A stretch of DNA of 64,000 nt, taken from assembly GCA_963695875.1 (NCBI GenBank), contig CAVOID010000009.1:128001-192000 (forward strand), written 5' to 3'. Within the stretch, counting starts at the first letter, position 1. The number at the start of each line of letters is the position of its first letter. A program made the translations under genes and the position numbers. The notes below the pieces were generated by a model that saw only the letters and a program-made list of their open reading frames with translations, did not search any database and was not told where the DNA came from. Of this stretch, positions 4,456 through 53,528 are shown piece after piece. This DNA is from an uncultured delta proteobacterium (lineage in GTDB: Bacteria; Desulfobacterota; Syntrophia; Syntrophales; UBA2185).

Positions 4456-6984
4456 TTACCGATACCAGAGAATCTGTGGCGCCTCCAGCGGCACCATGGC
4501 GCCACTAAGGGCAGGAATCACGCGTGGTGTAAAGTCAGTAGGCGGTCTCTGAGTCTCAATCCTCGTTTCATAGAAATATGTATTCCTGGCCGCATCCAAA
4601 AGGCCGGCTCGTGCCATTACGTGAATCTCAGGCGGCCCGGCACCCGGGACATCCGCATAAAGCTGCACCTCTATGGTGCCGGGATTAACCGCACCAAGCG
4701 TAACCTCTACCTTGAATGCATACAGGCTGTTGCCTAGATTCTTGACGTCCAGATTCCGCATTTTCAGGTGCGGCCACAGGGCTTCGATTGACTTGCACCA
4801 CTGATTGATCTGCCTCGCCATTTGGGCGTCATTCGCTGCACGCTTGCGAAAAGCCTCAATCGCCGGCAGGTAAAGCCTTTCCACATATTCCCGCAGCATT
4901 CTGTTGGAGCTGAAGGCCGGCGTCAATTCTGCCATACTCGCCCGCATAAGCGCCACCCAGGATGAAGGAATGCCATCGGCATTCCTTTCATAGAAGCAGG
5001 GAACAACCTCTGTTTCCAAAAGACGGTATAACTCTTCAGCTTCATAGGAATCCCAGTCCGGATCGTCTCCATGTTCGTGGCCGTCACCAAGGGCCCACCC
5101 TACCTCAGGGCAATACGCCTCGGCCCACCAGCCGTCAAGTTCAGACAGATTCAAGCCCCCGTTGACGAGCACCTTCATGCCGCTCGTCCCGCAAGCCTCC
5201 CACGGGCGGCGGGGCGTGTTGATCCACAGGTCAACCCCCTGCACAAGTTTCTGTGCCAGAGTCATGTCATAGTCAGCAAGAAACACCACGTGGGGTCTCA
5301 CTTCCGGGCGACTCATAAAGTGCGTCCATGCCCGGATCATCTCCTTACCATTGATGTCAAGCGGATGGGCCTTGCCGGCTATAATAAGCTGCACGGGCCT
5401 TTCCGGGTTGGTGAGAAGCCGGACCAGGCGTTCAGGATCGTGAAGCAGGAGATTCGGCCTCTTGTAGCCGGTGAACCGCCGGGCGAAACCCATGGTCAGA
5501 CAATCAGGATCAAGGAGCTGCTCACATTCATGTATGTTCTGCCGCGGTGCGCCTGCGGCAGCTAGTTGCCTTGCCAGCCTCTCCCTTGCGTACCTAATCA
5601 ATTCTTTTATGCTGGCTAAACGGAAGGCCCACAGATTCTCTTCCGGCACTTCCTTCAAATTCTGTTCAATCAACTCCAGTGTACCTTGCCATCGCGCATC
5701 GCCGCAGAAGTCAGTCCAGAGAGTATCGGCTGCCGCAGAATCCCAGGACGGCACATGAACTCCATTGGTGACATGAGTGATCGGCACTTCTCTCTCAGGT
5801 ATGCGTGGGAAAAGGGGTTGAAATATCCGGCGGCTGACCTCTCCATGCACATGGCTCACGGCATTAACCGCTCCTGATCCCCTGACGGCGAGATAGGCCA
5901 TATTGAGCGGCTCGTTGTCATCCGTCGGATTTTTGCGCCCCAGCGCAAGCAGGCTCCCCAGGCTTATCCCCAGCTTATTGGCGTAGGAAGCCAGATAGTG
6001 CTCTACCATGAACGGAGGAAATCGATCGAAGCCGGCCTCGACTGGGGTGTGAGTCGTAAAGACGTTGCCGCTGCGCGTCGCAGTCAGCGCAGCCTCGAAG
6101 GATTGCCCATGTGACGTCATAAAATCTCGTGCCCTCTCCAATATAGCCAGTGCAGCATGGCCCTCATTGAGATGACAGATCTCCGGTTCAATACCAAGCT
6201 TGGAGAGGACTCGCCACCCGCCGATGCCAAGGGCAATCTCCTGCTGCAGGCGCAGTTCCGGCCCACCGCCATACAGCTCGCTGGTGATGCCTCTGTCGGC
6301 AGCGCTATTGATAAGATCGTTACTATCAAGGAGATACAGCTTCACCTGCCCCACCGTAGCTTCCCAGACACGCAAACGCGATATACGTCCCGGAAAGTCA
6401 ACTTCTACGTGCAGCCATTCTCCTTCTTGATCGCGGACGGGCACGACAGGCAGTTGGGTCGGATCGTTATAGGGAAAGACCTCCCTCTGGCCGCCATCTG
6501 CGTCCAATGTCTGGCGGAAATAACCCTGCTGGTATAGAAGACCTATTCCCACGGCCGATACGCCGAGGTCGCTCGCTGTCTTGAGGTAATCACCCGCAAG
6601 TATTCCGAGTCCTCCCGAGTATATGGGAAGGGCTTCCCCGAGGCCATACTCCATGCTGAAATATGCAACCGTCACTGGTGACAGGGGATAAGCCTGCTGA
6701 AACCATCTGATGGTCTGCATAGATTCCCGGTGTCCCGCCACATATTTGTCCATCAGTTCGCGAAACTTCTGATCGGCTTTTAGTGCCTCAAGCCGGGTTC
6801 GTGACACTGTCTGCAGGATTACCCATGGGTTGCCGGTAATCCGCCAGAGATCCAGATCGATGTATTCCCATAAAGGATCTGCTGTATGGCTCCATGACCA
6901 TCGTAGGTTGAGGGCCAGTTCCGTCAGCCCTTCCAACCCTTCAGGCATGGTTGGTAAAAAGTAATTTGCAGGTGCAGTAGCCAT
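4456..6984 (-). CDS. glgP: Alpha-glucan (glycogen) phosphorylase
   Basis: YSGGLGILAGD, HLNEGH, EACGTSGMK PLP motif; GGAG before ATG 6984. Confidence 0.95.
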   Translation of the reverse strand: MATAPANYFLPTMPEGLEGLTELALNLRWSWSHTADPLWEYIDLDLWRITGNPWVILQTVSRTRLEALKADQKFRELMDKYVAGHRESMQTIRWFQQAYPLSPVTVAYFSMEYGLGEALPIYSGGLGILAGDYLKTASDLGVSAVGIGLLYQQGYFRQTLDADGGQREVFPYNDPTQLPVVPVRDQEGEWLHVEVDFPGRISRLRVWEATVGQVKLYLLDSNDLINSAADRGITSELYGGGPELRLQQEIALGIGGWRVLSKLGIEPEICHLNEGHAALAILERARDFMTSHGQSFEAALTATRSGNVFTTHTPVEAGFDRFPPFMVEHYLASYANKLGISLGSLLALGRKNPTDDNEPLNMAYLAVRGSGAVNAVSHVHGEVSRRIFQPLFPRIPEREVPITHVTNGVHVPSWDSAAADTLWTDFCGDARWQGTLELIEQNLKEVPEENLWAFRLASIKELIRYARERLARQLAAAGAPRQNIHECEQLLDPDCLTMGFARRFTGYKRPNLLLHDPERLVRLLTNPERPVQLIIAGKAHPLDINGKEMIRAWTHFMSRPEVRPHVVFLADYDMTLAQKLVQGVDLWINTPRRPWEACGTSGMKVLVNGGLNLSELDGWWAEAYCPEVGWALGDGHEHGDDPDWDSYEAEELYRLLETEVVPCFYERNADGIPSSWVALMRASMAELTPAFSSNRMLREYVERLYLPAIEAFRKRAANDAQMARQINQWCKSIEALWPHLKMRNLDVKNLGNSLYAFKVEVTLGAVNPGTIEVQLYADVPGAGPPEIHVMARAGLLDAARNTYFYETRIETQRPPTDFTPRVIPALSGAMVPLEAPQILWYR

Positions 6985-7111: not shown

Positions 7112-7168
7112 AAATTAATTCATGCAAAGGTTATATACAATGAGGATAAAATGGCTGTGAAATAGGAG
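7112..7168 (-). promoter_or_regulatory. glgP promoter with degenerate direct-repeat box
   Basis: CTCCTAT-ttca-CAGCCAT-N10-TTGTAT-N17-TAATTT on minus strand. Confidence 0.55.
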
Positions 7169-7175
7169 GAAATAG

Positions 7176-7232
7176 CTACTATTATTCTTCCATTTAATGC
7201 TTATTGCTTTACGCAGTTAAGAACATTAGTTT
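7176..7232 (+). promoter_or_regulatory. Promoter with direct-repeat box
   Basis: CTACTAT-tatt-CTTCCAT-N10-TTGCTT-N17-TAGTTT. Confidence 0.7.
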
Positions 7233-7267
7233 TATATCAATCATTCTTAAAAATATGGAGGTGCATA

Positions 7268-7651
7268 ATGATACGTAGAGCCGGGTCTTTGACCTTTGCA
7301 TGGGGCGTTATTTTAATTTTAGTAACGGTTTGTTGTTTATATCCTCAGACGTCTTTTGCCACTTCACCCAAAGACGTAAAACTTGAATATGATGCGAATA
7401 CGCAGATGTTGACGGTCACTATCACCCATAAAACTTCCTCACCCAATTATCACTATATAAAGTATGTCGAGATTAAAAAGGGAGAAGCAGTTGTCAGCAA
7501 TAACAAATATGAAAATCAGCCCGACCCGGAAATCTTTACATACAAATATAAAGTACCGGCGGCCGAAGGTGAGACGATAGAGGTCACCGCCACGTGCAGT
7601 ATTATGGGATCCAAGACGGTGACCATGACCGTAGGCAAGGCAGCGCAGTGA
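7268..7651 (+). CDS. Exported small beta protein, superoxide-reductase/desulfoferrodoxin-like motifs
   Basis: GGAGG RBS, signal peptide, H..HYIKYV and ATCSIMG. Confidence 0.65.
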   Translation: MIRRAGSLTFAWGVILILVTVCCLYPQTSFATSPKDVKLEYDANTQMLTVTITHKTSSPNYHYIKYVEIKKGEAVVSNNKYENQPDPEIFTYKYKVPAAEGETIEVTATCSIMGSKTVTMTVGKAAQ

Positions 7652-7686
7652 AAAAGGGCCCAAAAGATAAGTGCCTTTGACCCATC

Positions 7687-7720
7687 GTGAAGCTCCCCAC
7701 CCACAGGGCGAGACTTCTCG
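7687..7720 (+). repeat. Partial copy of repeat family B
   Basis: gtgaagctccccacccacagggcgagactt matches the 5' half of the 33573-33523 copy. Confidence 0.55.
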
Positions 7721-7831
7721 GCAAGGTGCTGGTGATTCAATGAAATTGTTCATGCGCTTGAACCCTCGAATCCTCGGATCCTTTTTGCTACTGGATGGAA
7801 GAATAACCATTAACAATGTAGGACCTTTGTC

Positions 7832-8191
7832 ATGACCGCATTTCTGTACATGTTGCTGGGACTAGTGGCAGGCATTCTTAGCGGTCTCATCGGCATTGGG
7901 GGAGGGACGATTATCGTCCCGGCACTGGTTCTATTTTTTGGCATTTCACAACACATGGCTCAGGGGACAACCTTGGCCTTACTGGTTCCGCCAATCGGCA
8001 TCCTTGCGGCATGGACATATTACAGGCAGGGCTATGTAGATTTACATATTGCAGGCTTCATGTGCCTGGGTTTCTTTATTGGCGGTCTCGTAGGCGCAAA
8101 AATAGCCACAAGTCTGTCGAATATAGTCCTGGAGAGGATATTCGGGGCAGCACTTCTTCTGATTTCATTGAAGATGATATTTGCAAAATAA
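7832..8191 (+). CDS. TauE/SafE (TSUP) family membrane protein, half-size
   Basis: GILSGLIGIGGG..VP and AQGTTL motifs; 119 aa. Confidence 0.88.
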   Translation: MTAFLYMLLGLVAGILSGLIGIGGGTIIVPALVLFFGISQHMAQGTTLALLVPPIGILAAWTYYRQGYVDLHIAGFMCLGFFIGGLVGAKIATSLSNIVLERIFGAALLLISLKMIFAK

Positions 8192-8251
8192 CGCAAAGAT
8201 CCCTTTTTATCTCGAATATATGTTTCAGTCTTCTTCTTAGGTAGCTTATAC

Positions 8252-8308
8252 CTACCATTATTCTTCTATTTTATCATCATTGCCTTCCTCTGCTAAACAT
8301 ACTATTTT
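8252..8308 (+). promoter_or_regulatory. Promoter with direct-repeat box
   Basis: CTACCAT-tatt-CTTCTAT-N10-TTGCCT-N17-TATTTT. Confidence 0.7.
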
Positions 8309-8350: not shown

Positions 8351-8530
8351 ATGAATATGAAAGAAGTACGTGAGATAGCAAAGAAAAAGGGCGTTGACAT
8401 CAGGGTCGGCCGTTCCAAGGAAAACATCATCCGTGATTATCAAATGATTGAAGGCTATTCACCATGCTTTCATACAAAAAACTCATGTGCTGAAGATTGC
8501 CTCTGGAAGGAAGACTGCCTGAACGTCTAA
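8351..8530 (+). CDS. 59-aa SAP/Rho-N-like protein with C-terminal Cys cluster
   Basis: Manual: MNMKEVREIAKKKGVDIRVGRSKENIIRDYQMIEGYSPCFHTKNSCAEDCLWKEDCLNV; GGGGA RBS; below ORF-track cutoff. Confidence 0.8.
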   Translation: MNMKEVREIAKKKGVDIRVGRSKENIIRDYQMIEGYSPCFHTKNSCAEDCLWKEDCLNV

Positions 8531-8650: not shown

Positions 8651-8884
8651 ATGGAAGAGCTCGACGGACTGAAGAATATAGAACACTTGAAACGTTCTCT
8701 TGAAGAGGCTGAGATAATTAAAACCGGCATGAAGCTGGTCTTGATGAACCCATCTTTAAATTCAGAGTGCAAGGGAAAGTATGAGATAGCATTCTCGAAG
8801 TTAAGAGATGAGATCAGAGAGTTAAAAACGATGATGAGCGCTGTAAGAAACGGAACATATCCCCGGTCTATTGAAAAAAATTAG
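8651..8884 (+). CDS. Hypothetical helical protein
   Basis: AGGA RBS, co-oriented with cluster. Confidence 0.55.
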   Translation: MEELDGLKNIEHLKRSLEEAEIIKTGMKLVLMNPSLNSECKGKYEIAFSKLRDEIRELKTMMSAVRNGTYPRSIEKN

Positions 8885-8905
8885 ATGTAAAAGGAATAAT
8901 GTTTG

Positions 8906-9619
8906 ATGGGCAAGCTACATATTATATCAAGGAGCAGCCAGCCCTTCCCAGACAGAAGAGAGGCGGGCATACTCTTAGGCAATGAATTAAAAACTCTCGA
9001 ACTCGAAAGAGAAAATCCGATTGTTGTAGCTATTCTGCGCGGAGGGATAATTGTTGCCAGTCAGGTTGCACTTATATTGAACTGTGATCTGGATATTGCG
9101 CTTTCTCGGAAACTCGGCGCCCCTTTCAATCCGGAATTGGCCATAGGCGCAATAAGTGAAAATGGCACCTTATTTTTAAATGAAATGATAGCGGCCCAGG
9201 TCGGCGCAACGGATTTTTATATCAAAAGGGAAGTAGCTGAACAATCGGAAGTGATCGCCGAACGCATTAAATATTTTCGCAAGGACTTCCCTAAAATAAA
9301 CTTAAAGGGGAGATATGTCATAATCGTAGATGATGGCATAGCAACCGGAGCGACTATGCAGGCGACGCTCTGGTCTATCAATCAGGAAAATCCGCGGAAG
9401 TTGATGGTGGCCCTGCCGGTGGGACCCGAAGACAGTTTAAGGAGACTATCAAAAGACGCTGATGATGTAATATGCCTGCGGGTGCCGGAATTCTTTTCGG
9501 CTGTCGGACAATTCTATTTTAAATTTGAGCAAACCGAGGATGAAGAAGTCTTACAGATTTTAAATGACGAGAAAGCTCGAGCCGGAGATGAAAACAGAAT
9601 TATTAAAAAAGTCGGTTGA
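8906..9619 (+). CDS. Phosphoribosyltransferase family protein
   Basis: FPDRREAG, RKLGAPFNPELAIGA, IIVDDGIATGATM PRPP loop. Confidence 0.92.
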   Translation: MGKLHIISRSSQPFPDRREAGILLGNELKTLELERENPIVVAILRGGIIVASQVALILNCDLDIALSRKLGAPFNPELAIGAISENGTLFLNEMIAAQVGATDFYIKREVAEQSEVIAERIKYFRKDFPKINLKGRYVIIVDDGIATGATMQATLWSINQENPRKLMVALPVGPEDSLRRLSKDADDVICLRVPEFFSAVGQFYFKFEQTEDEEVLQILNDEKARAGDENRIIKKVG

Positions 9620-9998
9620 ACTTTCTGAGAAGACCCGGCATGTTTTTATTGCGACCGTAAACGAGGAAGGCATACCCCATATAGCAGCCTCAAAGAGACT
9701 CTCTCTTGCCTCGAGAAATAACGTTGTTCTTACCGAGTGGTTTTGTCCCGGGACTATGGCAAACCTGCTGGGGAAGAATCATAATCTGACAATTGTTGTG
9801 TGGGATTCGAAAACAGACACCGGTTATCAGTTAGTCGGAGTAGCAGAGAAAGAAGAGGACATGGCTTATTTAAACGGTTATTCACCTGATTTGAAGAAGC
9901 AAAATACTGTACCTCAAATTCAGAGAAAAGTGACAGTTCGAATCGACAAGATTATAGATTTTAAATTATCACCGCATACGGATATTGAAAGGAGATGA
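9588..9998 (+). CDS. Pyridoxamine 5'-phosphate oxidase-like FMN-binding protein
   Basis: FIATVNEEGIPH, TMANL, GYQLVG; GGAG before ATG 9588. Confidence 0.8.
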   Translation: MKTELLKKSVELSEKTRHVFIATVNEEGIPHIAASKRLSLASRNNVVLTEWFCPGTMANLLGKNHNLTIVVWDSKTDTGYQLVGVAEKEEDMAYLNGYSPDLKKQNTVPQIQRKVTVRIDKIIDFKLSPHTDIERR

Positions 9999-17243: not shown

Positions 17244-18092
17244 TCAAGACTTAAGGTAGCTGTGGAGGCCGGGCAGGTAATTGACGCCAAGGTATGTGAA
17301 CAGCACACAGGCAAACCCGATGATGGCCATAAGGGCTATGCGTTTGCCCCGCCACTCTCTCACTAATCGTACATGCAGCATGGTCGCATAGACAAGCCAT
17401 GTAATCAATGACCATGTCTCTTTCGGATCCCAGCTCCAGTAAGACCCCCACGCATAATGGGCCCAGACAGACCCCGTTATAATCCCCAACGTCAAAAGAA
17501 CGAATCCAAGAGCCGTGCTCTGATAGATAAGTTCATCCAGAATGCTCCTTGCCGGCAGAAAGCGAAGCATTGACCCTGAGCGACTTCCCGCATGCCGATC
17601 AAGATTCTTTATAAAATACATGATACCAAGGCCGCATGCGATGGCAAAAGCGGCATATCCCATGAAACAGGTCATTACATGGCTTGTAAGCCAGTTACTC
17701 TGGAGCGCCGGGATCAGTGGCTGTATCCGGCTGTTTATATTGGGTGACAGGGAAGCAAAGGCCATGGCAAGAAATGCAACGGGAACAACAAATGTGCCCA
17801 GGCTTTTGTTTTTGATCCGCCACTCGAAAACCAGATAGAGCAGGACAATGGACCATGCAAAAAAAATCAAAGATTCATAGAAATTGGACAGGGGTGCATG
17901 ACCGATTCCCATTCTGTAGGATTCCATCCATCGAAGGATGAGTGCCACTGTCTGTGCCGTAAGACCAACAAAAGCTGTAATTGACGCCAGACGGCCCCAG
18001 ATATCCTCACCCCTGATCATCCTGATGAAGTATAAAACAAAGGCTGCAAGATAGATGAAGGTAACCCAGCTTAGAATGGCGGTATTGATCAT
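17244..18092 (-). CDS. ccsA: Cytochrome c biogenesis heme-attachment protein CcsA/ResC (system II)
   Basis: WAHYAWGSYWSWDPKETW WWD motif, LQSNWLTSHV, GLHSY. Confidence 0.95.
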   Translation of the reverse strand: MINTAILSWVTFIYLAAFVLYFIRMIRGEDIWGRLASITAFVGLTAQTVALILRWMESYRMGIGHAPLSNFYESLIFFAWSIVLLYLVFEWRIKNKSLGTFVVPVAFLAMAFASLSPNINSRIQPLIPALQSNWLTSHVMTCFMGYAAFAIACGLGIMYFIKNLDRHAGSRSGSMLRFLPARSILDELIYQSTALGFVLLTLGIITGSVWAHYAWGSYWSWDPKETWSLITWLVYATMLHVRLVREWRGKRIALMAIIGFACVLFTYLGVNYLPGLHSYLKS

Positions 18093-19533
18093 GAATTCGA
18101 CACTCCTGAATTTTGTATCTCTTCAATCAGGCTTGTTATTTCCCGTTCAAGACCGACCGGATCTTTATTGGTTTTACCGGCGATGCTGATTCGCGTGTTT
18201 GGTCCCTGTCTGTCGATCCTGATCCAAACCTGCCGGTGAGCATAAAAAAAGACAGTCATAAAACCGATAACAAGAAGGAAAGAACCGGCAATAACAACAG
18301 GGACACCCGGGTCCCGTGTTACCTGCAACCCCGTATAATATTTCGTTTGAATCATGGCAAGGGAAAAGACATACGGGGCAAAAATGCCCGGATTAAATAT
18401 CGGTACACGGTCTATGAGGCCGGGATTTTCCTCTATGATCTGTTCGATGTTCTGGAAAACCCATAATTGGAATTTTCCCTTTGCCGACTTTATATCGATC
18501 TTAACCGCGGGTCCGATCCGCATGAAGTTTTCCTCCATGCGGATAATCTTCGCTTTTCCATCCTTTCCCGGCAGATCAAACTCTGTACCAATACGAACCC
18601 TGATTACATGCGCCTTTTCGCGTCCTTTATCGGATGCCGATGACCGCATCACCCGATGGCATCGTACCGAAATTTGCCTGATAAAACCGGATTCCTTCAA
18701 TGGTTGCGGGATGATTGACAAATATCGGCCCCTGCTGAAGAATACTGCCGTTCCGTGAAAAAGTGAGGTCCGAACGATACATCTTTCGGCGTGCCATCCT
18801 CATAATAGTCTATGGAAAAGCGATCACAGCGTACGGCAAAATCAAGTTTTTTAAAACCCGTTTCTCCCTTGAGCTGAACTTTATCTGCCGAGTCCCCTTC
18901 AGCAATCTCAACGTAGGCATCAAAACCGAAGAGGAACCCGATGATTATGCCTGTCAGAATAATCAGAACACTGAAATGAACCAGATAGACCCCGAAATAC
19001 GAAAAATTTCCCTTTTCGCCGGTTATGAAGGTGCCTTCTTCCGTATCCTCTCTACATATACCTTTATATTTCTTCTTCAAAAGATTCTGGAGTCTCAGTG
19101 CCTCCTCATTGCGAGGTTTTTCGACGAGAATGACCCGGTCTGAAGGCAGGTCCCTGAAAATCTCTGTTTCATCGGGGACGGATGTTTTGCGGGAAAGCTT
19201 CCAGGAAGCAGGCAGTCGATTCGCCGAACAGACAATCAGATTAACGGAAAGGAGTATCATGAGGCTGACAAACCACGTGGAATGGAAAATATTGAACAAT
19301 TGCAGCTCCCGAAAAACGGCGACCATACCGGGACTGAGATGGCTGGTAAATATATCAGCCTCCTGCTGAGGTATTATGGTGCCTAAAATAGAGGCAATGG
19401 ATATGATGATTAACAGTACAATTGTCAGTTTTACGGAGGATAAAAGAGACCGGAAACTTATTTTTCGTCTTCGCATTACTGAATTCCTCGCCTGCATTTG
19501 CTCCCGTATTAATCTGTTGCCGTGTTCATTCAA
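18089..19533 (-). pseudogene. resB: ResB/CcsB cytochrome c biogenesis protein with two +1 frameshifts (probably sequencing errors)
   Basis: LSSVKLTI..GTIIPQ, VHFSVL, middle frame YRSDL..VNHP..FYQ, YTGLQVTRDPG; shifts near 18785 and 18630. Confidence 0.88.
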
Positions 19534-24515: not shown

Positions 24516-25503
24516 CTATGCTAATGAATTAGTCAGATATTTCTGGAGGGTTTTATAGCTCTCAATATCAGTATCCACTAAAGAAGCTCCTATGTATGTC
24601 TCACTATTGGAACTGAGCACATATTGGGGCAGGCATTCAATCGTGACCGGCATTTTACTGTTGGGCAATGTGAAGGTAATCGAAATATTGCATGTCATTC
24701 CTGTCTTCCCCTGTCTCGAACTTATGAGCACCAGGTATTGAAATCTGTACGCCGCCGAGAGAGACGTCCAATACCAGCCCGGGTTGTAATGATGCTTTGT
24801 CACCATCTGATGTGCTGACTAAAGCAGAGAAAGAAACCTTTTTCCTCGGATAATGTCGTTTTTCCTCTTCTACCTTTTTTTTATAAAAATCGGGATACAG
24901 CTGTTTTGCGCAACCCGGACATATGCTGTGCGTAAAATTCAGGTCGGAATGATCTTTCAGATACGACTCAACCTGCATCCAGTATCCATCATCAGATCGT
25001 ATATTCTTGCAGTTGGCACAAATCGGAAGCAGCCCCCTTAACGTTTTTACATTTTCCAGCGCTTCTTTCAGCTCTTTTATCAATCTTTCCTTCTCTGTCA
25101 AATTGTGAAAACGCTCAATGGAATATTTTAAAGAACGCAAAAGCAGCATGCTGTTTATCTGATTTTTATTTAAATAGTCCTGAACACCACCCTGCAAGGC
25201 CTTTATAGCGACATTCTCATCATCAAGACCTGTCAAGACAATAATTGGCGTATTCTTTTCCTGCTCCACCATTTTTTTGACAGTGTCCAGGCCGTTGCTG
25301 TCGGGAAGCGACAAGTCCAGTAAAATTACATCCACTTTATTTTCAGCCAGATATTTCAAAGCATTTTCACATGTTTCCTTGTGTATTAATTCAAGATGGA
25401 CATCACCCGCATCTTTTATGACGTCCTCATAAATCATTCCTTTTATCAAAGCAGTATCGTTCTTATTATCCTCAACGAGAAGTATTTTTAATATTTTGGA
25501 CAT
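24516..25503 (-). pseudogene. Response regulator (REC, Cys motif, PilZ) with a +1 frameshift near 24703
   Basis: LLVED, LLDLSLPD, LPICANCK..THSICPGC, RHYPR..DVSLGG; PilZ tail in the 24516-24806 frame. Confidence 0.82.
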
Positions 25504-25714
25504 GTTACTCTCCTTTTTGCGGCGTAACGACAATATCCAACTTCCGCCTCGAAATTTCGATCTGCAAACATATTATAATATTGTATACATAAAACATAAA
25601 ATAACTAACAATCGGGATTTTCCTGATTTATAGCTTCGAAAACCATTATAATGAACCTCTAAAATCCCGATTGATGAGAGTGCATAAACCGATATTGTTA
25701 TACATAAATTGTAC

Positions 25715-25771
25715 CTACCATTATTCTTCCATTTAATCCCCATTGCGCTTCATCGATAAGGGCATTAAGCT
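25715..25771 (+). promoter_or_regulatory. Promoter with consensus direct-repeat box
   Basis: CTACCAT-tatt-CTTCCAT-N10-TTGCGC-N17-TAAGCT. Confidence 0.7.
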
Positions 25772-25872: not shown

Positions 25873-27537
25873 GTGGAAAGAAGACTGCATAAACCTCAAA
25901 TGAATTCACCTTCCGGTTTCAAGGCGGACAGATTGCCAGGGATTCCCGCAAAAGACCGGAGCCGGCGGCGTCACAGGAGCCATCCGTTGAAGGGGATGAG
26001 GAATGTGAAGAAGTTTGAGCTCCTTAAGGGGGCGGAGAAGACGGCCGTGTTGATTGTAGCTCCGGAGACCGGCAGGCTGCCGGAAGAGATGGGTCATCTT
26101 GCCAGATACATTTCCGGCAAGGCAGGCGGCCTCGGGGAGGTGGTTTCCGCGTTGTGTGAAGGACTGAGGGCGAGGGGGGTCAACTGTCACCTGGCAACGC
26201 TGAATCTGAAGAAGAGATTCCAGAGAGAGAGCAAAATGGATGAGCATGAATGGAGGGAAATAAGGTATAAAGTTGATCCTGACAAAGTCCACCTGGTGAG
26301 TTCATCTGTTTTTGCCAACCTTCCCTGCGCATATGCAGGCAACCCGCTTTTGAATGCCGCTGAATTTCAGAAGGAACTGGTCAACAACATCATCAAGACT
26401 GTCCGGGCCAAGAATGAGGGGAGGCTGATTCTGCACAGTCATGACTGGATGGCGGGCGGTGCGGTCACTGCCTACGCGAAATCCAGGGGTTGTCCCGTAT
26501 TGCATACCGTTCACAACGTCCACACCGGCCATATTCCCGTGGATATGCTTTTCGGCGTTGATGTTGACAGCCTCACGTGGAATATCTATTTTTCCGAGGC
26601 ATATGGGAGGCGATGCATCGATTCTCAGGCTACAGCCATCAAGAGCGCCACGCTGGTCAATTTTGTGGGCGAGAAGTTTCTCGAGGAGGTTATAGAGGAT
26701 TATTTTCTGGACAGGTCATTTATACCGCCGAGTGTAAGGCAGGAGGTAAAGGCGAAGTATTATAACGGTGCGGCGATGAGCATCATGAATGCCATGTCCC
26801 CCAGAATGTATCCGGAGAACTGCGAACATCTTGTAAGAAGGTATGATTATGATAATGACGTTATGGCGGCAAAGAGTGATAACCTGATGGAATTTCAAGG
26901 GAGGACCGGGCTGATTATTAATCCTGATGCGATCCTTCTTTACTGGCCGTCCAGGTTGGATCCGTCACAGAAGGGCGTTGAGCTTCTCGAGGATATAGCC
27001 CTCAGGTTTGTCATAGAGCATAGTGACGTACAGATTGCTGTTGTGGGGAACGGAGTCGAGGATGATCACACCCATGAGGATATTTTAGGGAGCATCGCGT
27101 GGGCCTCAGGCGGAAAGATAACGTACCAGCGTTTCAGCGAGTCCATCTCTATGCTTGGTTACGCCGCTGCCAGTGATGTATTTGGCGCTTCTCTGTATGA
27201 GCCATGCGGGCAGGTCGACCAGATAGGAAACATCTTTGGAGCTACGGCAACGAATCGTGACACCGGCGGCTACCATGACAAGATAAAAGATATGAGATTG
27301 AAGGCTGATGGTGCTCCTCATGATGAGGGGAACGGATTTCTTTTTCAGAATTATGATCCCGGCGGGCTGTGGTACGGATTATCCAGGAGTGTGCAGTTTC
27401 ACAGGAAATCACCGGGGATAAGGGAACAGCAGATCAAGAGGATCATGAGAGAAGCGAGGCAGAAGTATGATTTAAACAATATGGTTGATAAGTACGTAAA
27501 GGTATATGAGAGGCTCAACGGCAGGCCTCTGTTTTAA
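25873..27537 (+). CDS. glgA: Glycogen/starch synthase-like glycosyltransferase (GT5); start may be ~25996-26005
   Basis: KAGGLGEV, HSHDW, HTVHN, SRLDPSQKG, SLYEPCG, TGGYHD. Confidence 0.82.
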   Translation: MERRLHKPQMNSPSGFKADRLPGIPAKDRSRRRHRSHPLKGMRNVKKFELLKGAEKTAVLIVAPETGRLPEEMGHLARYISGKAGGLGEVVSALCEGLRARGVNCHLATLNLKKRFQRESKMDEHEWREIRYKVDPDKVHLVSSSVFANLPCAYAGNPLLNAAEFQKELVNNIIKTVRAKNEGRLILHSHDWMAGGAVTAYAKSRGCPVLHTVHNVHTGHIPVDMLFGVDVDSLTWNIYFSEAYGRRCIDSQATAIKSATLVNFVGEKFLEEVIEDYFLDRSFIPPSVRQEVKAKYYNGAAMSIMNAMSPRMYPENCEHLVRRYDYDNDVMAAKSDNLMEFQGRTGLIINPDAILLYWPSRLDPSQKGVELLEDIALRFVIEHSDVQIAVVGNGVEDDHTHEDILGSIAWASGGKITYQRFSESISMLGYAAASDVFGASLYEPCGQVDQIGNIFGATATNRDTGGYHDKIKDMRLKADGAPHDEGNGFLFQNYDPGGLWYGLSRSVQFHRKSPGIREQQIKRIMREARQKYDLNNMVDKYVKVYERLNGRPLF

Positions 27538-43894: not shown

Positions 43895-46420
43895 TTAATA
43901 GTTTATTTTTTGATAAAATATTTTCTTTACCAGTTCCGCCATTAAGATATAAAGCACCACAATAAGGCCCATCATTACGAGAAAAGATGCAGGCAGGGGT
44001 ATAAACCCGAAAATCTCTCCGACAGGTGTGAAGGGAAAGATAAGCGTGACAAGAACGACAGCAATTGTGGCGACAGATAGATACTTCCCCGGCCGGCTCT
44101 TAAAGAAAGGCCTTCTGCTGCGGATCACCAGCACGATGATTGAGGCAGAAATCACAGACTCCATAAACCACCCCGTCCTGAACTGGTCGGGTGTGGCATG
44201 GAGGATCAGCAAGAGAACCCCGAAAGTGAGATAATCAAAAACCGAACTTACCAGGCCGAAGGTTAACATGAATTTCCGGATAAAAGCAATATTCCAGCTT
44301 CTGGGTTGATCCACCATCTCACCGTCTACATGATCCGTGGCAATGGTCATTTCCGGAAAATCCGTCATCAGATTGGTCAGCAGTATCTGTTTGGGCAGCA
44401 GGGGGAGAAAGGAGAGAAAGAGCGACGCTCCGGCCATGCTGAACATGTTCCCGAAATTGGCACTGGTCGCCATAAAGACATATTTTAAAGTGTTGGCAAA
44501 TGTCGTTCTCCCTTCCCTCACACCTTGTATTAAGACAGCCAGATTTTTTTCCAGGAGTACGATATCCGCAGATTCTTTGGCTACGTCAACCGCGGTGTCC
44601 ACGGAAATGCCTACGTCCGCTGCGTGAAGCGCGGATGCGTCATTGATTCCGTCCCCCATATATCCTACAACATGCCCTGCCTTCCGGAGTGCAATGATAA
44701 TGCGCTCTTTCTGATTGGGCTCTACCTCTGCGAAGATGTCCGTCTCCTTTACTTTCAGCAAAAGAGCCTCATTGCTTATTTCGCGGAGTTCACTTCCGGT
44801 AATGATTTTTGCATCCCGTATCCCCACATCCTTGCTCACCTTGGCGGCGACGAGGCGGTTGTCCCCGGAAATAATTTTCAGAGAAACACCGAGCTTATTG
44901 AGGACAGCAATCGTTTTGGCAATCCCCGCTTTCGGCGGATCGAAAAAAACCAGAAAGCCGAGAAAAGTCATATCCTCCTCATGATCCTTATTGATGGACG
45001 GCTCTGCACCCCTGTCCCGATAAGCGATTCCCAAGACACGAAAGCCCTGGTTGCTGAGCGTCTCAAATCTCTGCTGGATCTGCTGATTTACCGAAGTCAT
45101 ATCAACTTTATCGCCAGAAGGAGTCTCTGCCGTTGAACAGACGGCAAGCACCTTGGGAAGAGTGCCCTTGGTGACCATTAAATACCTGCCGTCCTTTGCC
45201 ACCAGGATACTCAACCGCTTGCGGATGAAGTCATAAGGGACCTCATCCGCCTTTTCATATCCGGCAATATCCGGTTGTTTGTAAGAACGGATCGCTTCAT
45301 CGATAGGATTGGAGAAGCCCTGTTTCAAAGAAGGCATTCAGGTAGGCATGAAGGAAGACCCGGTCGCTGGGATTGCCTTCGATATCTAATGCCGAATGCA
45401 GACGTACTTTCCCTTCGGTCAGGGTTCCTGTCTTGTCCGAGCAGAGGACATCCATGCTCCCGAAATTCTCGATAGCGGCCAGCCGCTTCACAATGACCTT
45501 TTGCTTTGCCATTTTCTTGGCGCCATGGGCCAGATTGATGCTGATAATAGCAGGCAGCAATTGCGGGGTCAGCCCCACTGCCAGAGCCAGAGAAAAAAGA
45601 AACGATTCCAGAACGGGCCGGTGGAAATAGACATTGACGGCAAAAATCAGGAAAACCAGGGCCAGTGTAACTTCCAGCAGCAAAAACCCGAATTGCCGGA
45701 TGCCGTGTTCAAATTCCGTTTCCTGGGGTCTTAGTTTTAGCCTTTCCGATATTTTGCCGAATTCTGCCTGCTTCCCGGTGAAAACCACAACGGCCCTGGC
45801 CGTACCGCTGATTACATGGGTTCCCATAAAGAGGCAGTTGGTGCGCCCGCTGAGAGGTGTTTCCGCCGGCAATAGACCGGCCTCCTTCTCGACGGGGTAG
45901 GTTTCACCAGTCAGGGTTGCCTCATCCACAAAGAGATCTTTTGCTTCTAAAATCAGGCTGTCTGCGGGGATGGCATCTCCGGCATTCAAGATAACGACGT
46001 CTCCCGGAACGACATCTTCCAAGGCATATGTCTGCATGATTTTTGTCACGAAGAACAGTCGTCTTGATCCGGACTATGGCCAGGAGCTTTTCGACGGCAT
46101 CGACGGCGCCCCGTTCCTGCCAGAATCCCAAGGAGGCCGCTGACCAGAACGATAAAAAGAATAATAACGGCATCCACGTGGTCTTGAAGGAAGAAAGATA
46201 ACCCGGCAGCAAAAATAAGCGTGAGGATAATGGGATTTTTAAATTGGGCAAGAAGCAGCGCCGCCGTATCGGACCGTTTCGGCGGCTTGAGCAGGTTAGC
46301 GCCATAATTGATCAGCCGCCGCCTGGCCTCCTCGCTGCTCAATCCTTCCTGCTGAGATTCAAGCTGAGTCAGTAAATCAGCCTGCGGTATGTTCCAGAAA
46401 TTGGTTGGTTGTTGGATCAT
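43895..46420 (-). pseudogene. mgtA: Mg2+-translocating P-type ATPase with three +1 frameshifts (~46130, ~46028, ~45320)
   Basis: LTGE, DKTGTLT, PYDFIRKR, DPPK, GDGIND, SANFGNMFS. Confidence 0.9.
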
Positions 46421-46485
46421 TAGGCTTTCCAATCGTCATGACGGACTGATGGTTCTCCAAAACAGGTGCGATAATTACAGGGTGA

Positions 46486-51987: not shown

Positions 51988-52759
51988 TCATTGCTTGTTT
52001 CCTTCCTTCGGACCGAAGGTATACTGATAGGCAATATAAAAGTTGTAGTAGTTCGGACCGTAGATATCCTGGCCCCCAGCCAGCAGTATATGGTGGTTAT
52101 CCGTCAGGTTTATGATGGCGCCGACGGTGTAGCCCTTACTCTCGTCGATATCGGCCTTGCTTGCTGTCTTGTAGTAGAGCTCTACTCCAAGGGTCAGCTT
52201 GTTTAGTGATCTCCCGCTGTACCAGCCAGCCGAAATACCACCAGTCCCTGTTGTCCTCGCCGGAAGTAAACCAGTAGCCCCCTCCCCCGTAAGTCGTCCA
52301 CGGCCCCCAGCTCTTCTGGAACCACAGGGGCAGGAAAAACTGGGTCTTGCCGTTCCCCAGTCCTCTCGAAGACTCGCCGGTGGGAATTTCCAGCAGTGGA
52401 AATGTCCCCACTTGAGGAAAATACTTCGTTTCCTGAATGAAGCGGTACTTGATGCCAACTTCCGTATCTCCGTAACCATATTGTGACGCCTCCCCTTCCG
52501 GCTTTGCATACTGCATCGGGGCAATCAGATGGACCTGGACATTCGGCAGAGCGCCATAGTTCACCTCCACGTGGGGCAGCGTGGCGGAGTTCTGGTCCCG
52601 GTCATGGCTGTATTGCGAGCCGAGATATAATTCCCAGTGCTTGTATTCCACCGGTTCCGGATCATCGGTCTTAAATGGCGGGCCGGCCAAAGCAGCCCTT
52701 GGCATCAGTGCAAGAACAAGCCAAAGTGCCGCAACAGCGAATATGCTTATTCGTTTCAT
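51988..52759 (-). pseudogene. Putative outer-membrane beta-barrel ('transporter' family); +1 frameshift near 52201
   Basis: Signal peptide ALA|GPPFKTDDPEP, GYGDTEVGIKYRF, EIPTG..GLGNG, tail YIAYQYTF. Confidence 0.78.
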
Positions 52760-53326
52760 TAAATCTGCTTTCCGATAGTGAAAGCCCTTGCCCAGATATT
52801 TTCCTACACCATAGTAGGATTGTATCTCCGGTCCAAAAAGTATCGGCCTCACTTTTTCCATATCCGGCAAACCATTTTCTCCGAGGACGGATTCCTCCGC
52901 TTTGACGTCCATGATCTCACCGATAAAGTGTGTGTGAATCCCGATTTCACTGGAGCCGAGCAGTTTGCATTCCAGAATCAGGGAAAATTCCTGTATATAA
53001 GGGGCATCCACCTTATCACTCTTTACGGCTGTTTGCTCGGCAGCGGAAAATTTGTCCACATTTCTCCCGGAAACCAGCCCGAAGTAGTCAGCTATTTTGA
53101 CCTGCGAAGCGGAAGGTACATTAACAGTGAATGCCTTGCGCTCCATAATGTTGCCGTAGGTATAGGTGGCCTTTCTTATGGAAACAGCCACACAGGGCGG
53201 GTTGGAACTGCAAACCCCTCCCCATGCTATGGTCATTACATTAGGTTCCCCGGCCTTGTTGTACGTCCCTATGACCCATACGGGTGTCGGATAAATCAGC
53301 GTCCTCGCACCGAATGATTTTTTCAT
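52759..53326 (-). CDS. Flavin reductase (flavoredoxin-like); apparent fusion to the next gene comes from one extra G
   Basis: PTPVWVIGT, NVMTIAW, DYFGLVSG, HTHFIGEI; removing a G near 52786 gives GKAFTIGKQI-stop with a TAATG overlap. Confidence 0.88.
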
Positions 53327-53356: not shown

Positions 53357-53413
53357 ACTTTAATGGAATTGAGCCGATGACACAATGGTAGTTTTATGAA
53401 TGTAGAATGGTAG
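53357..53413 (-). promoter_or_regulatory. Promoter with degenerate direct-repeat box
   Basis: CTACCAT-tcta-CATTCAT-N10-TTGTGT-N17-TAAAGT. Confidence 0.5.
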
Positions 53414-53528
53414 AATAATGCTCCTATCGATGCCTGCCCCATTTTATTTTTTCCTTGTTTTTTTACGGGAGGCGATTATACGATAAAAAAACAGTGAAAT
53501 GTTTCATTCTCAAACAGGAGGAAAGGTC

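Follow-up and report, generated by a model that had tools for sequence, protein, structure and literature searches.

Which protein acts at a promoter element that recurs five times within 64,000 nucleotides of a Syntrophales genome, and what does it control? The stretch of DNA analysed here, which we call the window at its full length of 64,000 nt, belongs to the genome of an uncultured delta proteobacterium (G000; assembly of 2.86 Mb, 82.6% complete), and an earlier note on it had described five sites in which two CTWCCAT copies precede a TTG and a TA at fixed distances. The Syntrophales are oxygen-avoiding, uncultured or slow-growing partners of methanogens, and the literature searched contained nothing on the regulation of their stress responses. 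We consider it likely that the element is an array of four half-sites of one LuxR-type regulator, which is predicted to activate a general stress or dormancy regulon of some two dozen promoters, weak ones of the housekeeping type.

Architecture of the element

All five sites are found where they had been placed, with the TTG 28 nt and the TA 51 nt from the first base of repeat 1, and a matrix applied genome-wide recognizes exactly five sites in the window. The complete element begins with an inverted half-site and continues, after 7 nt, with half-site 1 (consensus CTACCAT) and half-site 2, which are separated by 4 nt; another 4 nt on lies half-site 3, the last base of which is the first T of the TTG; the hexamer is followed by 17 nt and then by the TA, which lies 20 nt past the TTG. 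Half-sites 1-3 are spaced at an 11-bp period. The conserved 10-nt linker that had been postulated between repeats and TTG has this length, but it turned out to be a 4-nt gap followed by the third half-site, of which a perfect copy is present at 53385-53391. The fourth, inverted half-site, located 7 nt upstream of half-site 1, is absent only at 25715 among the five window sites.

Two of the elements are arranged back to back. The one facing glgP covers 7112..7182 on the reverse strand (arm 7182-7176, half-sites 7168-7162, 7157-7151 and 7146-7140, predicted -35 7140-7135, predicted -10 7117-7112), and the one facing a gene for a 127-aa protein covers 7162..7232 on the forward strand (arm 7162-7168, half-sites 7176-7182, 7187-7193 and 7198-7204, predicted -35 7204-7209, predicted -10 7227-7232). 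This pair, which had been noted before, is real, and both arrays share one inverted core at 7162..7182 (7 + 7 + 7 bases), to which no strand is assigned. In a mirror scoring, the divergent pair reached 52.8 and 53.4 bits, while the other 20 sites tested all remained below 0, so that it is the sole such pair among 22. The three remaining elements are found at 8238..8308 on the forward strand (arm 8238-8244, half-sites 8252-8258, 8263-8269 and 8274-8280, predicted -35 8280-8285, predicted -10 8303-8308), without an arm at 25715..25771 on the forward strand (half-sites 25715-25721, 25726-25732 and 25737-25743, predicted -35 25743-25748, predicted -10 25766-25771), and at 53357..53427 on the reverse strand (arm 53427-53421, half-sites 53413-53407, 53402-53396 and 53391-53385, predicted -35 53385-53380, predicted -10 53362-53357).

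The 18-base repeat by itself is weak evidence within the window and strong evidence genome-wide. In the window, it has six matches at no more than two mismatches, compared to 1.70 expected, and one of 100 shuffles reached six as well; site 7168 is not among these six. Across G000, eight of the nine places at most two mismatches away from the 18-mer possess both the TTG and the TA at the described offsets (five of six outside the window), compared to a background rate of 0.0015 at positions outside long open reading frames (ORFs), and neither the TTG nor the TA had been a search criterion. A matrix made from the repeats only ranked five new places directly after the ten training sites, and all five possess the TTG and the TA; leave-one-out scores with the repeats only were 33.9 bits for site 7168 and 21.0 bits for site 53413. 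The full matrix with a cut-off of at least 14 bits identifies 26 sites in G000, 19 of which are training sites, and none in each of the four shuffled genomes that served as null, while R1, a sequence-only site model, finds 29 sites at a threshold of E 0.05. None of the 26 sites is contained in an ORF of at least 150 aa, although such ORFs make up 74.6% of the genome. C9:107926, the lowest-scoring of the 26, is a better fit to half-sites of other types and may be the site of another paralogue. A look-alike near 7796-7813 was dropped, as it lacks the TTG and the TA, and Rfam gave 0 matches at gathering score across the window.

Half-site 1 is the most uniform part of the 26 sites, with a pairwise identity of 83%; the later half-sites reach 62-70%, the short linkers 50-65%, the 17-nt spacer 35% and the flanks 28-29%. 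This decrease from half-site 1 to the flanks fits protein contacts and not a copied element. Beyond the TTG and the TA, the predicted -35 and -10 match their consensus poorly.

Predicted targets and conservation of the sites

The element fronts about two dozen gene units in G000, many of them for stress protection. As first or later genes behind the sites, we find those for two universal stress proteins, a bacterioferritin-like protein, a WrbA-like flavodoxin, PfpI, YtxH, a BON protein, DUF5670, CFA synthase, Cu/Zn superoxide dismutase, a hybrid cluster protein, an OmpA-family protein, a HAD hydrolase, glycogen phosphorylase, a glycogen-synthase-like enzyme, lone receivers, a two-component pair and several small unknown proteins. 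The earlier proposal that one activator governs a regulon of stress or dormancy type is supported and grows to 26-29 sites per genome, which are kept at orthologous promoters; one of the members it named, the TSUP protein discussed below, is doubtful. In G147, which belongs to another family, the targets are a universal stress protein, a ferritin, PfpI, YtxH, Hsp20, a sigma factor resembling RpoH, an alcohol dehydrogenase and receiver-PAS proteins.

For comparison, we used a set of 41 genomes (G000 and 40 relatives) as well as wider sets of 150 genomes of the Syntrophales order and 145 genomes from other orders. With R1, at least three sites are found in 20 of the 41 genomes, which we call site-rich, the other 21 being site-poor with fewer than three; all 11 genomes of genus g6 have 7-25 sites. 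A site match at E <1e-4 is present in 25 of the 150 genomes of the order sample (again R1), and only four of the 145 genomes from other orders gave one weak match each (E 0.0055-0.0086), which is near chance level; one of the four, in G303, is placed at the stop codon of a LuxR gene with a lysine-type helix. The earlier note had left it as a question whether orthologous promoters retain the sites, and they do so in other genera and families. The back-to-back layout before glgP is kept in G007, G018 and G019, an orthologous site precedes the same 59-aa gene in G007, and the G007 orthologue of site 25715 retains the inverted arm. The TTG is kept in 72 of 82 distinct sites from seven other genomes, and the TA is found in exact register in 50 and one base off in 24 of them.

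Some observations on the surroundings of the sites should be added. Three unrelated genes in two genomes are preceded by nearly the same leader of about 150 bases, which includes the element (G000:C7:13222 (-), C11:135935 (+) and L325), and to judge from this likeness it is a copied promoter. A family of small membrane proteins without Pfam match recurs behind or near sites (L002:5164-5514, L011:3405-3746, L209:3269-3610). One target operon, G000:C8:219412-221542 (L008), encodes a kinase with a receiver-PAS module that is 74% identical to that of the candidate regulator described next, followed by a highly conserved NarL-type regulator, and this operon is likely a second regulatory tier.

The candidate regulator

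According to the earlier note, the regulator could not be identified within the window, and indeed the gene of our candidate ends about 2.5 kb to the left of window base 1. By Pfam, G000 possesses 14 LuxR-type, two OmpR-type and one LytTR regulator gene. The candidate is a LuxR-type protein of 413 aa with a receiver-PAS-helix-LuxR build (G000:C9:124256-125497, which is L004:9757-10998). Its N-terminal receiver (PF00072) contains D12, the phospho-acceptor D57, S85 and K107, which are kept in at least 90% of 54 relatives, and its C-terminal LuxR (GerE) helix-turn-helix (PF00196, E 8.9e-14) spans residues 353-401, the helices being present in the structural model as well. In the predicted fold (mean pLDDT 86), receiver, helix, PAS domain, a helix of 65 residues and LuxR domain follow each other. 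The PAS domain is missing from several orthologues and is therefore not an essential sensor.

An orthologue of the candidate occurs in 19 of the 20 site-rich and in none of the 21 site-poor genomes; absence from the latter was judged by tree placement of the best matches of 11 genomes and by score in the other 10. The 19 orthologues form one clade (99/97) with an invariant recognition helix, and the best matches of the 11 site-poor genomes fall outside that clade. In the order sample, where the best 30 orthologue matches and 80 lower-ranking ones were inspected, 21 genomes have an orthologue and all 21 also have a site at E <1e-4; an orthologue is found in nine of the 11 site-bearing genomes that are new to this sample. 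Since related genomes are not independent, these figures are given as counts and not as probabilities. They suggest that the binder and activator is probably a LuxR-type response regulator, and not one of the OmpR/PhoB or LytTR type.

The candidate's operon is itself a predicted target. In G000, G002, G007 and G019, a site stands at its head, followed by wrbA, a PAS kinase, a lone receiver and finally the regulator gene, and shorter forms with a heading site are present in G009 and G032. A short remnant of a superoxide dismutase C-terminus lies between wrbA and the kinase in G000 (L004:6882-7097), and similar short ORFs of the QQIEAKVEELL type are found behind sites in relatives (L206, L207, L214). 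The operon has been disrupted in G017 (99% complete; L215), in which the kinase and the receiver are lost and the regulator gene lacks the codons of its first 59 residues, phospho-site included, and is interrupted by a stop codon; this genome has seven sites with a best E of 3e-8, compared to 11-25 sites in its genus mates.

Sites behind stop codons and the recognition helix

A site is also found at the end of the candidate gene, overlapping its stop codon or behind it, and scores 41.2 bits when left out of training. The other 13 LuxR-type genes of G000 have no regulon-type site at their stop codons, the next best score being 8.4 bits. A family-wide comparison of 171 distinct LuxR-family genes from G000 and fetched loci (L176-L453) revealed a TTG 38-43 nt past the stop codon in 80 of them, at exactly 41 nt in 45. 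Among these 80 anchored genes, 59 encode a non-lysine recognition helix, and their sites have the same geometry with other letters: with the 7-nt spacer, at least four of five bases are complementary in 30 of the 59 (no more than four of 59 with any other spacer), on average 3.36 of five (no more than 1.73 otherwise), and the 11-bp period gives 3.8 of seven, compared to at most 2.47 with other periods.

The half-sites differ by helix type. FHRKN goes with CTACC, EFHRDN with CTGAT, FHRNG and FHRNN mostly with CTTAT-like half-sites, IHRYR with GTAAT and EIHRYH with TAAAG. In the table of helices and half-sites, 65 genes were kept and 106 left out (91 without a TTG anchor and 15 with a poor inverted pair). 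If a lysine occupies the position of NarL Lys192, the half-site contains CC in 15 of 18 genes, versus 0 of 47 otherwise, and with phenylalanine or tyrosine at the 189 position the first base is C in 46 of 47 genes, versus two of 18. The conserved histidine would correspond to the position of NarL His190. The base contacts of NarL are made by Lys188, Val189 and Lys192 (PMC10853779).

Matrices for six other half-site types find in G000 the paralogue's own site or a few places, and no large regulon. We think that inheritance alone would not explain that both arms change together while they stay complementary, nor that about 25 unlinked sites appear to carry the half-site of this one paralogue while those of the others are few. 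The family-wide geometry behind LuxR genes supports an assignment of the sites to the candidate.

A possibly divided primary sigma factor

The sigma-70-family genes found in G000 are those for RpoD, an RpoH-like, a FliA-like and one ECF protein. RpoD (G000:C3:343546-344289, L454) has a decayed region 4.2: compared to the canonical region, 6-14 of 35 residues are retained in all 33 Syntrophales examined, versus 24-25 in G274 and G303 from other orders. A canonical region 4.2 is present in a conserved stand-alone protein of about 95 aa, cysteine-rich at its start (in G000 encoded at C8:148631-148912, L471), which was detected in 38 of 41 Syntrophales genomes and in two of 69 outside the order. 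Both of these out-of-order genomes, which belong to one family, also have an RpoD with decayed region 4.2, and one of them has a further sigma factor in which the region is intact. G027 has a decayed RpoD, and the small sigma-4 protein was not found in this genome. The TTG of the sites is kept in G147, in which the -35 helix of RpoD is lost. The simplest reading of these sequences would be a primary sigma factor split between RpoD and the small sigma-4 protein. As a separate observation, a site precedes the RpoH-like sigma gene of G147, where another site is followed, at about 1.4 kb, by a second gene for the small sigma-4 protein (L281, L483).

Weighing the assignment and its alternatives

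Several findings weigh against the assignment of the regulon to the candidate as an activator. Sites were found without an orthologue in G012 (10 sites, 82% complete) and in G004, G005, G124 and G125 (1-3 sites); orthologues lack a stop-codon site in G035, G037, G056, G087, G137 and G147, and lysine-type helices have no site behind the gene in G104 and G158 and the first half-site alone in G203 and G240. Kinship enters the co-occurrence counts, and the regulator gene often lies inside a cluster of sites. A second paralogue of G000, encoded at C8:73967, has the same DFHRKN residues. The match of helix and site is inseparable from ancestry, with only one independent pair where branches are well supported, and the table leaves out 106 of the 171 genes, 91 of which are unanchored. 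The -10 is looser in other genomes, with the TA exact in the said 50 of 82 sites even though the TTG and TA positions were part of the search model. To call the -35 a sigma-70 element requires, given the decayed -35 helix of RpoD, the added assumption that a separate protein reads it. Finally, the stress character of the regulon is read from target families that are generally taken as marks of general stress or dormancy regulons, and a literature search for a single paper that names six of these families found none.

The alternative that fares best keeps the same LuxR-type protein but lets it repress or only modulate, with the third half-site blocking the -35 until a signal arrives, and the overlap of this half-site with the first base of the TTG would permit that. 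However, three of the four half-sites are upstream of the -35, neither the -35 nor the -10 matches well beyond the TTG and TA, and in the one case of a broken regulator, G017, the sites are fewer and weaker. Related proteins activate from such positions (PMC10853779, PMC4797271, PMC3177182), and we regard repression as quite unlikely.

It is still less probable that the NarL-type response regulator encoded at G000:C8:219412-220065 is the binder. A site precedes its operon in G000, G002, G007 and G019, and relatives with 73-95% identity occur in 14 of the 20 site-rich genomes, but it was not found in six site-rich genomes, including G035 (100% complete) and G017 (99%), and it was found in two of the 21 site-poor ones. 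Moreover, no site was found before its relatives in the other loci compared, or at its stop codon, and with a kinase that shares the 74% identical receiver-PAS module with the candidate it is better read as a downstream target.

A similarly small chance is left for a copied or mobile promoter or a boundary repeat that has no dedicated regulator. The array-internal spacers are 50-65% alike versus 28% in the flanks, and C7:13222 and C11:135935, which face unrelated genes, have almost the same leader of about 150 bases, as is also seen in G007. This view is countered by sites that are held at orthologous promoters across genera and families, by a conservation that tracks the half-sites, the TTG and the TA, by the tight link to one regulator clade, and by four of 21 family members in which the element has 0 copies. 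Copying may be how the regulon grew.

We also think it very unlikely that several LuxR paralogues with lysine helices share the sites, with C8:73967 contributing or substituting. This paralogue has the identical helix residues and is present in G012 and G004, which both have sites but no main orthologue; against this, it occurs in only six of the 41 genomes (five of 20 site-rich and one of 21 site-poor), in none of the 11 of genus g6, and its own downstream site scores 0.2 bits. When the NarL-type regulator, the C7 OmpR gene and this C8 paralogue were tried as binders, their profiles did not track the sites.

LytTR direct repeats are typically about two helical turns apart, and direct repeats with an 11-bp period are typical of winged-helix regulators. 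The least probable binder is the OmpR/PhoB or LytTR regulator that the earlier note had suggested: the 11-bp period of the direct repeats would fit OmpR/PhoB, and genes of both types exist in G000, but the C7 OmpR gene, the only one profiled of the three (the others being the PhoB-like C15 gene and the LytTR gene), occurs in 14 of the 20 site-rich genomes and likewise in 11 of the 21 site-poor ones, compared to 19 of 20 and 0 of 21 for the LuxR-type candidate, the matrix found no site at any of the three genes, the period of 11 with three in-phase copies differs from LytTR repeats, and the inverted arm as well as the geometry behind LuxR genes would be left unexplained.

Comparison with known systems

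The activator assignment to the LuxR-type candidate finds parallels in ComA of Bacillus subtilis, a LuxR-type (tetrahelical) regulator that also uses an inverted and a more degenerate direct repeat with an 11-bp period near the polymerase site (PMC4797271). By the same source, ComA has another half-site and a 4-nt spacer instead of the 7-nt spacer seen here, where the right arm is in phase with the direct repeats, and it controls a Firmicute quorum regulon of nine units (PMC4797271). In the dormancy regulon of DevR/DosR of Mycobacterium tuberculosis, one LuxR-type regulator uses phased tandem sites of which the primary is strong and the secondary weak, divergent genes share sites, and the regulator operon lies inside the regulon; its Dev boxes, however, are tandem 18-bp palindromes, whereas we find one inverted pair and head-to-tail half-sites of unrelated sequence (PMC3177182). 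The motifs of both ComA and DosR fail to match, and the Syntrophales system would thus work like them and is a member of neither. Universal stress proteins, Hsp20 and phosphoribosyltransferase-type proteins are also among the DevR/DosR targets. ComA is not known to have a PAS domain or long helix, nor DosR a lone receiver step or a PAS-helix insert.

NarL of Escherichia coli resembles the candidate in its LuxR-type helix-turn-helix, in activation just upstream of the -35 and in a specificity that resides in varying positions of the recognition helix, but its site is 7-2-7 instead of 7-7-7 with additional repeats (PMC10853779). The candidate scores 41.1 bits against the NarL family, the cut-off of which is 250, and is not NarL proper. 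The best NCBIfam matches of the operon's kinase and of the regulator's receiver are LvrA and LvrB of Leptospira, respectively, but both remain far under the family cut-offs (152 of 500 and 254 of 1200 bits). The best structural match of the receiver is PDB 8vc9 (46% identity over 142 columns), where the receiver is continued by a long helix. Phosphorylation of LvrB drives coiled-coil formation of the helix that follows the receiver, and its output is a kinase acting on an anti-sigma factor, whereas the output of the candidate is a LuxR DNA-binding domain (PMC13269768).

With regard to targets, the regulons of RpoS, SigB and EcfG overlap with the one described here in WrbA, PfpI, BON, YtxH, bacterioferritin, Cu/Zn superoxide dismutase, CFA synthase and DUF5670. 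These regulons are driven by sigma factors, and control here appears to be activator-based; no RpoS- or SigB-like sigma factor is among the four sigma-70-family genes found in G000 at its completeness of 82.6%. We found no description of the motif, the regulator or the regulon in the literature searched, although motif tables in supplements or subscription journals could hold one. We conclude that the regulon is real and that it is probably a form of LuxR-type activator control for which the searched literature gives no description.

Target genes and further features of the window

Behind the divergent pair lie the predicted targets alpha-glucan (glycogen) phosphorylase (842 aa, 4456..6984, reverse strand, TIGR02094 above cut-off) and, on the forward strand, a 127-aa protein without Pfam or NCBIfam family (7268..7651), which has a G007 orthologue at the same position. 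The TauE/SafE (TSUP) protein that follows (119 aa, 7832..8191, forward) had been counted as a member of the regulon, which is doubtful, as its gene does not lie behind the orthologous promoter in G007 or G018. The first gene behind site 8252 encodes a cysteine-containing protein of 59 aa without family (8351..8530, forward); it is followed by a 77-aa ORF (8651..8884, forward) that shows a by-eye, unscored resemblance to a small protein behind another site (L010:2727-2927), and by a phosphoribosyltransferase-domain gene (8903-9619) and a PNPOx-like gene (9564-9998), which are predicted to share a transcript (8903..9998, forward) and keep their order behind a site in G007.

Site 25715 precedes a predicted target for a glycosyltransferase that is related to glycogen synthase (25873..27537, forward, below GlgA cut-offs), relatives of which lie behind a site in G007 and G044. 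The protein encoded divergently from this site (24655-25533) combines a receiver with a cysteine-rich motif at its C-terminus, and Pfam recognizes no output domain in it; having no DNA-binding domain, it was rejected as regulator. The predicted target of site 53413 is an ORF that opens with a flavin reductase domain (52136..53326, reverse), and in G007 a flavin reductase of 188 aa is found behind a weak site. In the window ORF, the flavin reductase domain is fused to an apparent second protein with a signal peptide, possibly due to a lost stop codon or an assembly error. Frameshifts are seen elsewhere in the window, with a cation-transporting ATPase in three ORFs (43895-46432) and a ResB-like gene in two (18089-19533), and likewise at several other places of the G000 assembly.

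Proposed mechanism and implications

A mechanism can be proposed from these data. The PAS kinase and the lone receiver of the candidate's operon would phosphorylate the regulator, of which one dimer would bind the inverted pair with its 7-nt spacer. Further subunits would add at 11-bp steps on the same helix face up to the edge of the -35, as in ComA, and the bound complex would recruit the polymerase. The site that heads the regulator's own operon could provide positive feedback, and the shared core at 7162-7182 could let both directions fire. As for the signal, the targets invite the guess that it is oxygen, redox or energy stress.

More tentatively, and with a probability that we rate as rather low, the parts might together form a general stress response of Syntrophales that works without a stress sigma factor and instead combines a phosphorelay, a LuxR activator, a split sigma factor and an operator-carrying regulator family in which one local switch has grown global. 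The activator would then hand over to a housekeeping polymerase whose -35 recognition resides in the separate sigma-4 protein of 95 residues, and each family gene, with its own operator-promoter at the stop codon, would contribute to a readable code from helix to DNA.

If the candidate is the regulator, Syntrophales would possess a stress programme for which no description was found in the literature searched, and if it is true that the sigma-4 protein completes RpoD, the activator and the split sigma factor would meet at these promoters. The stop-codon operators of the many paralogues represent pairs of regulator and site for a large PAS/receiver-LuxR family and thereby a natural data set for a recognition code. 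The regulator, its motif and the list of its targets lend themselves to tests in vitro, for which the organism need not be cultured.

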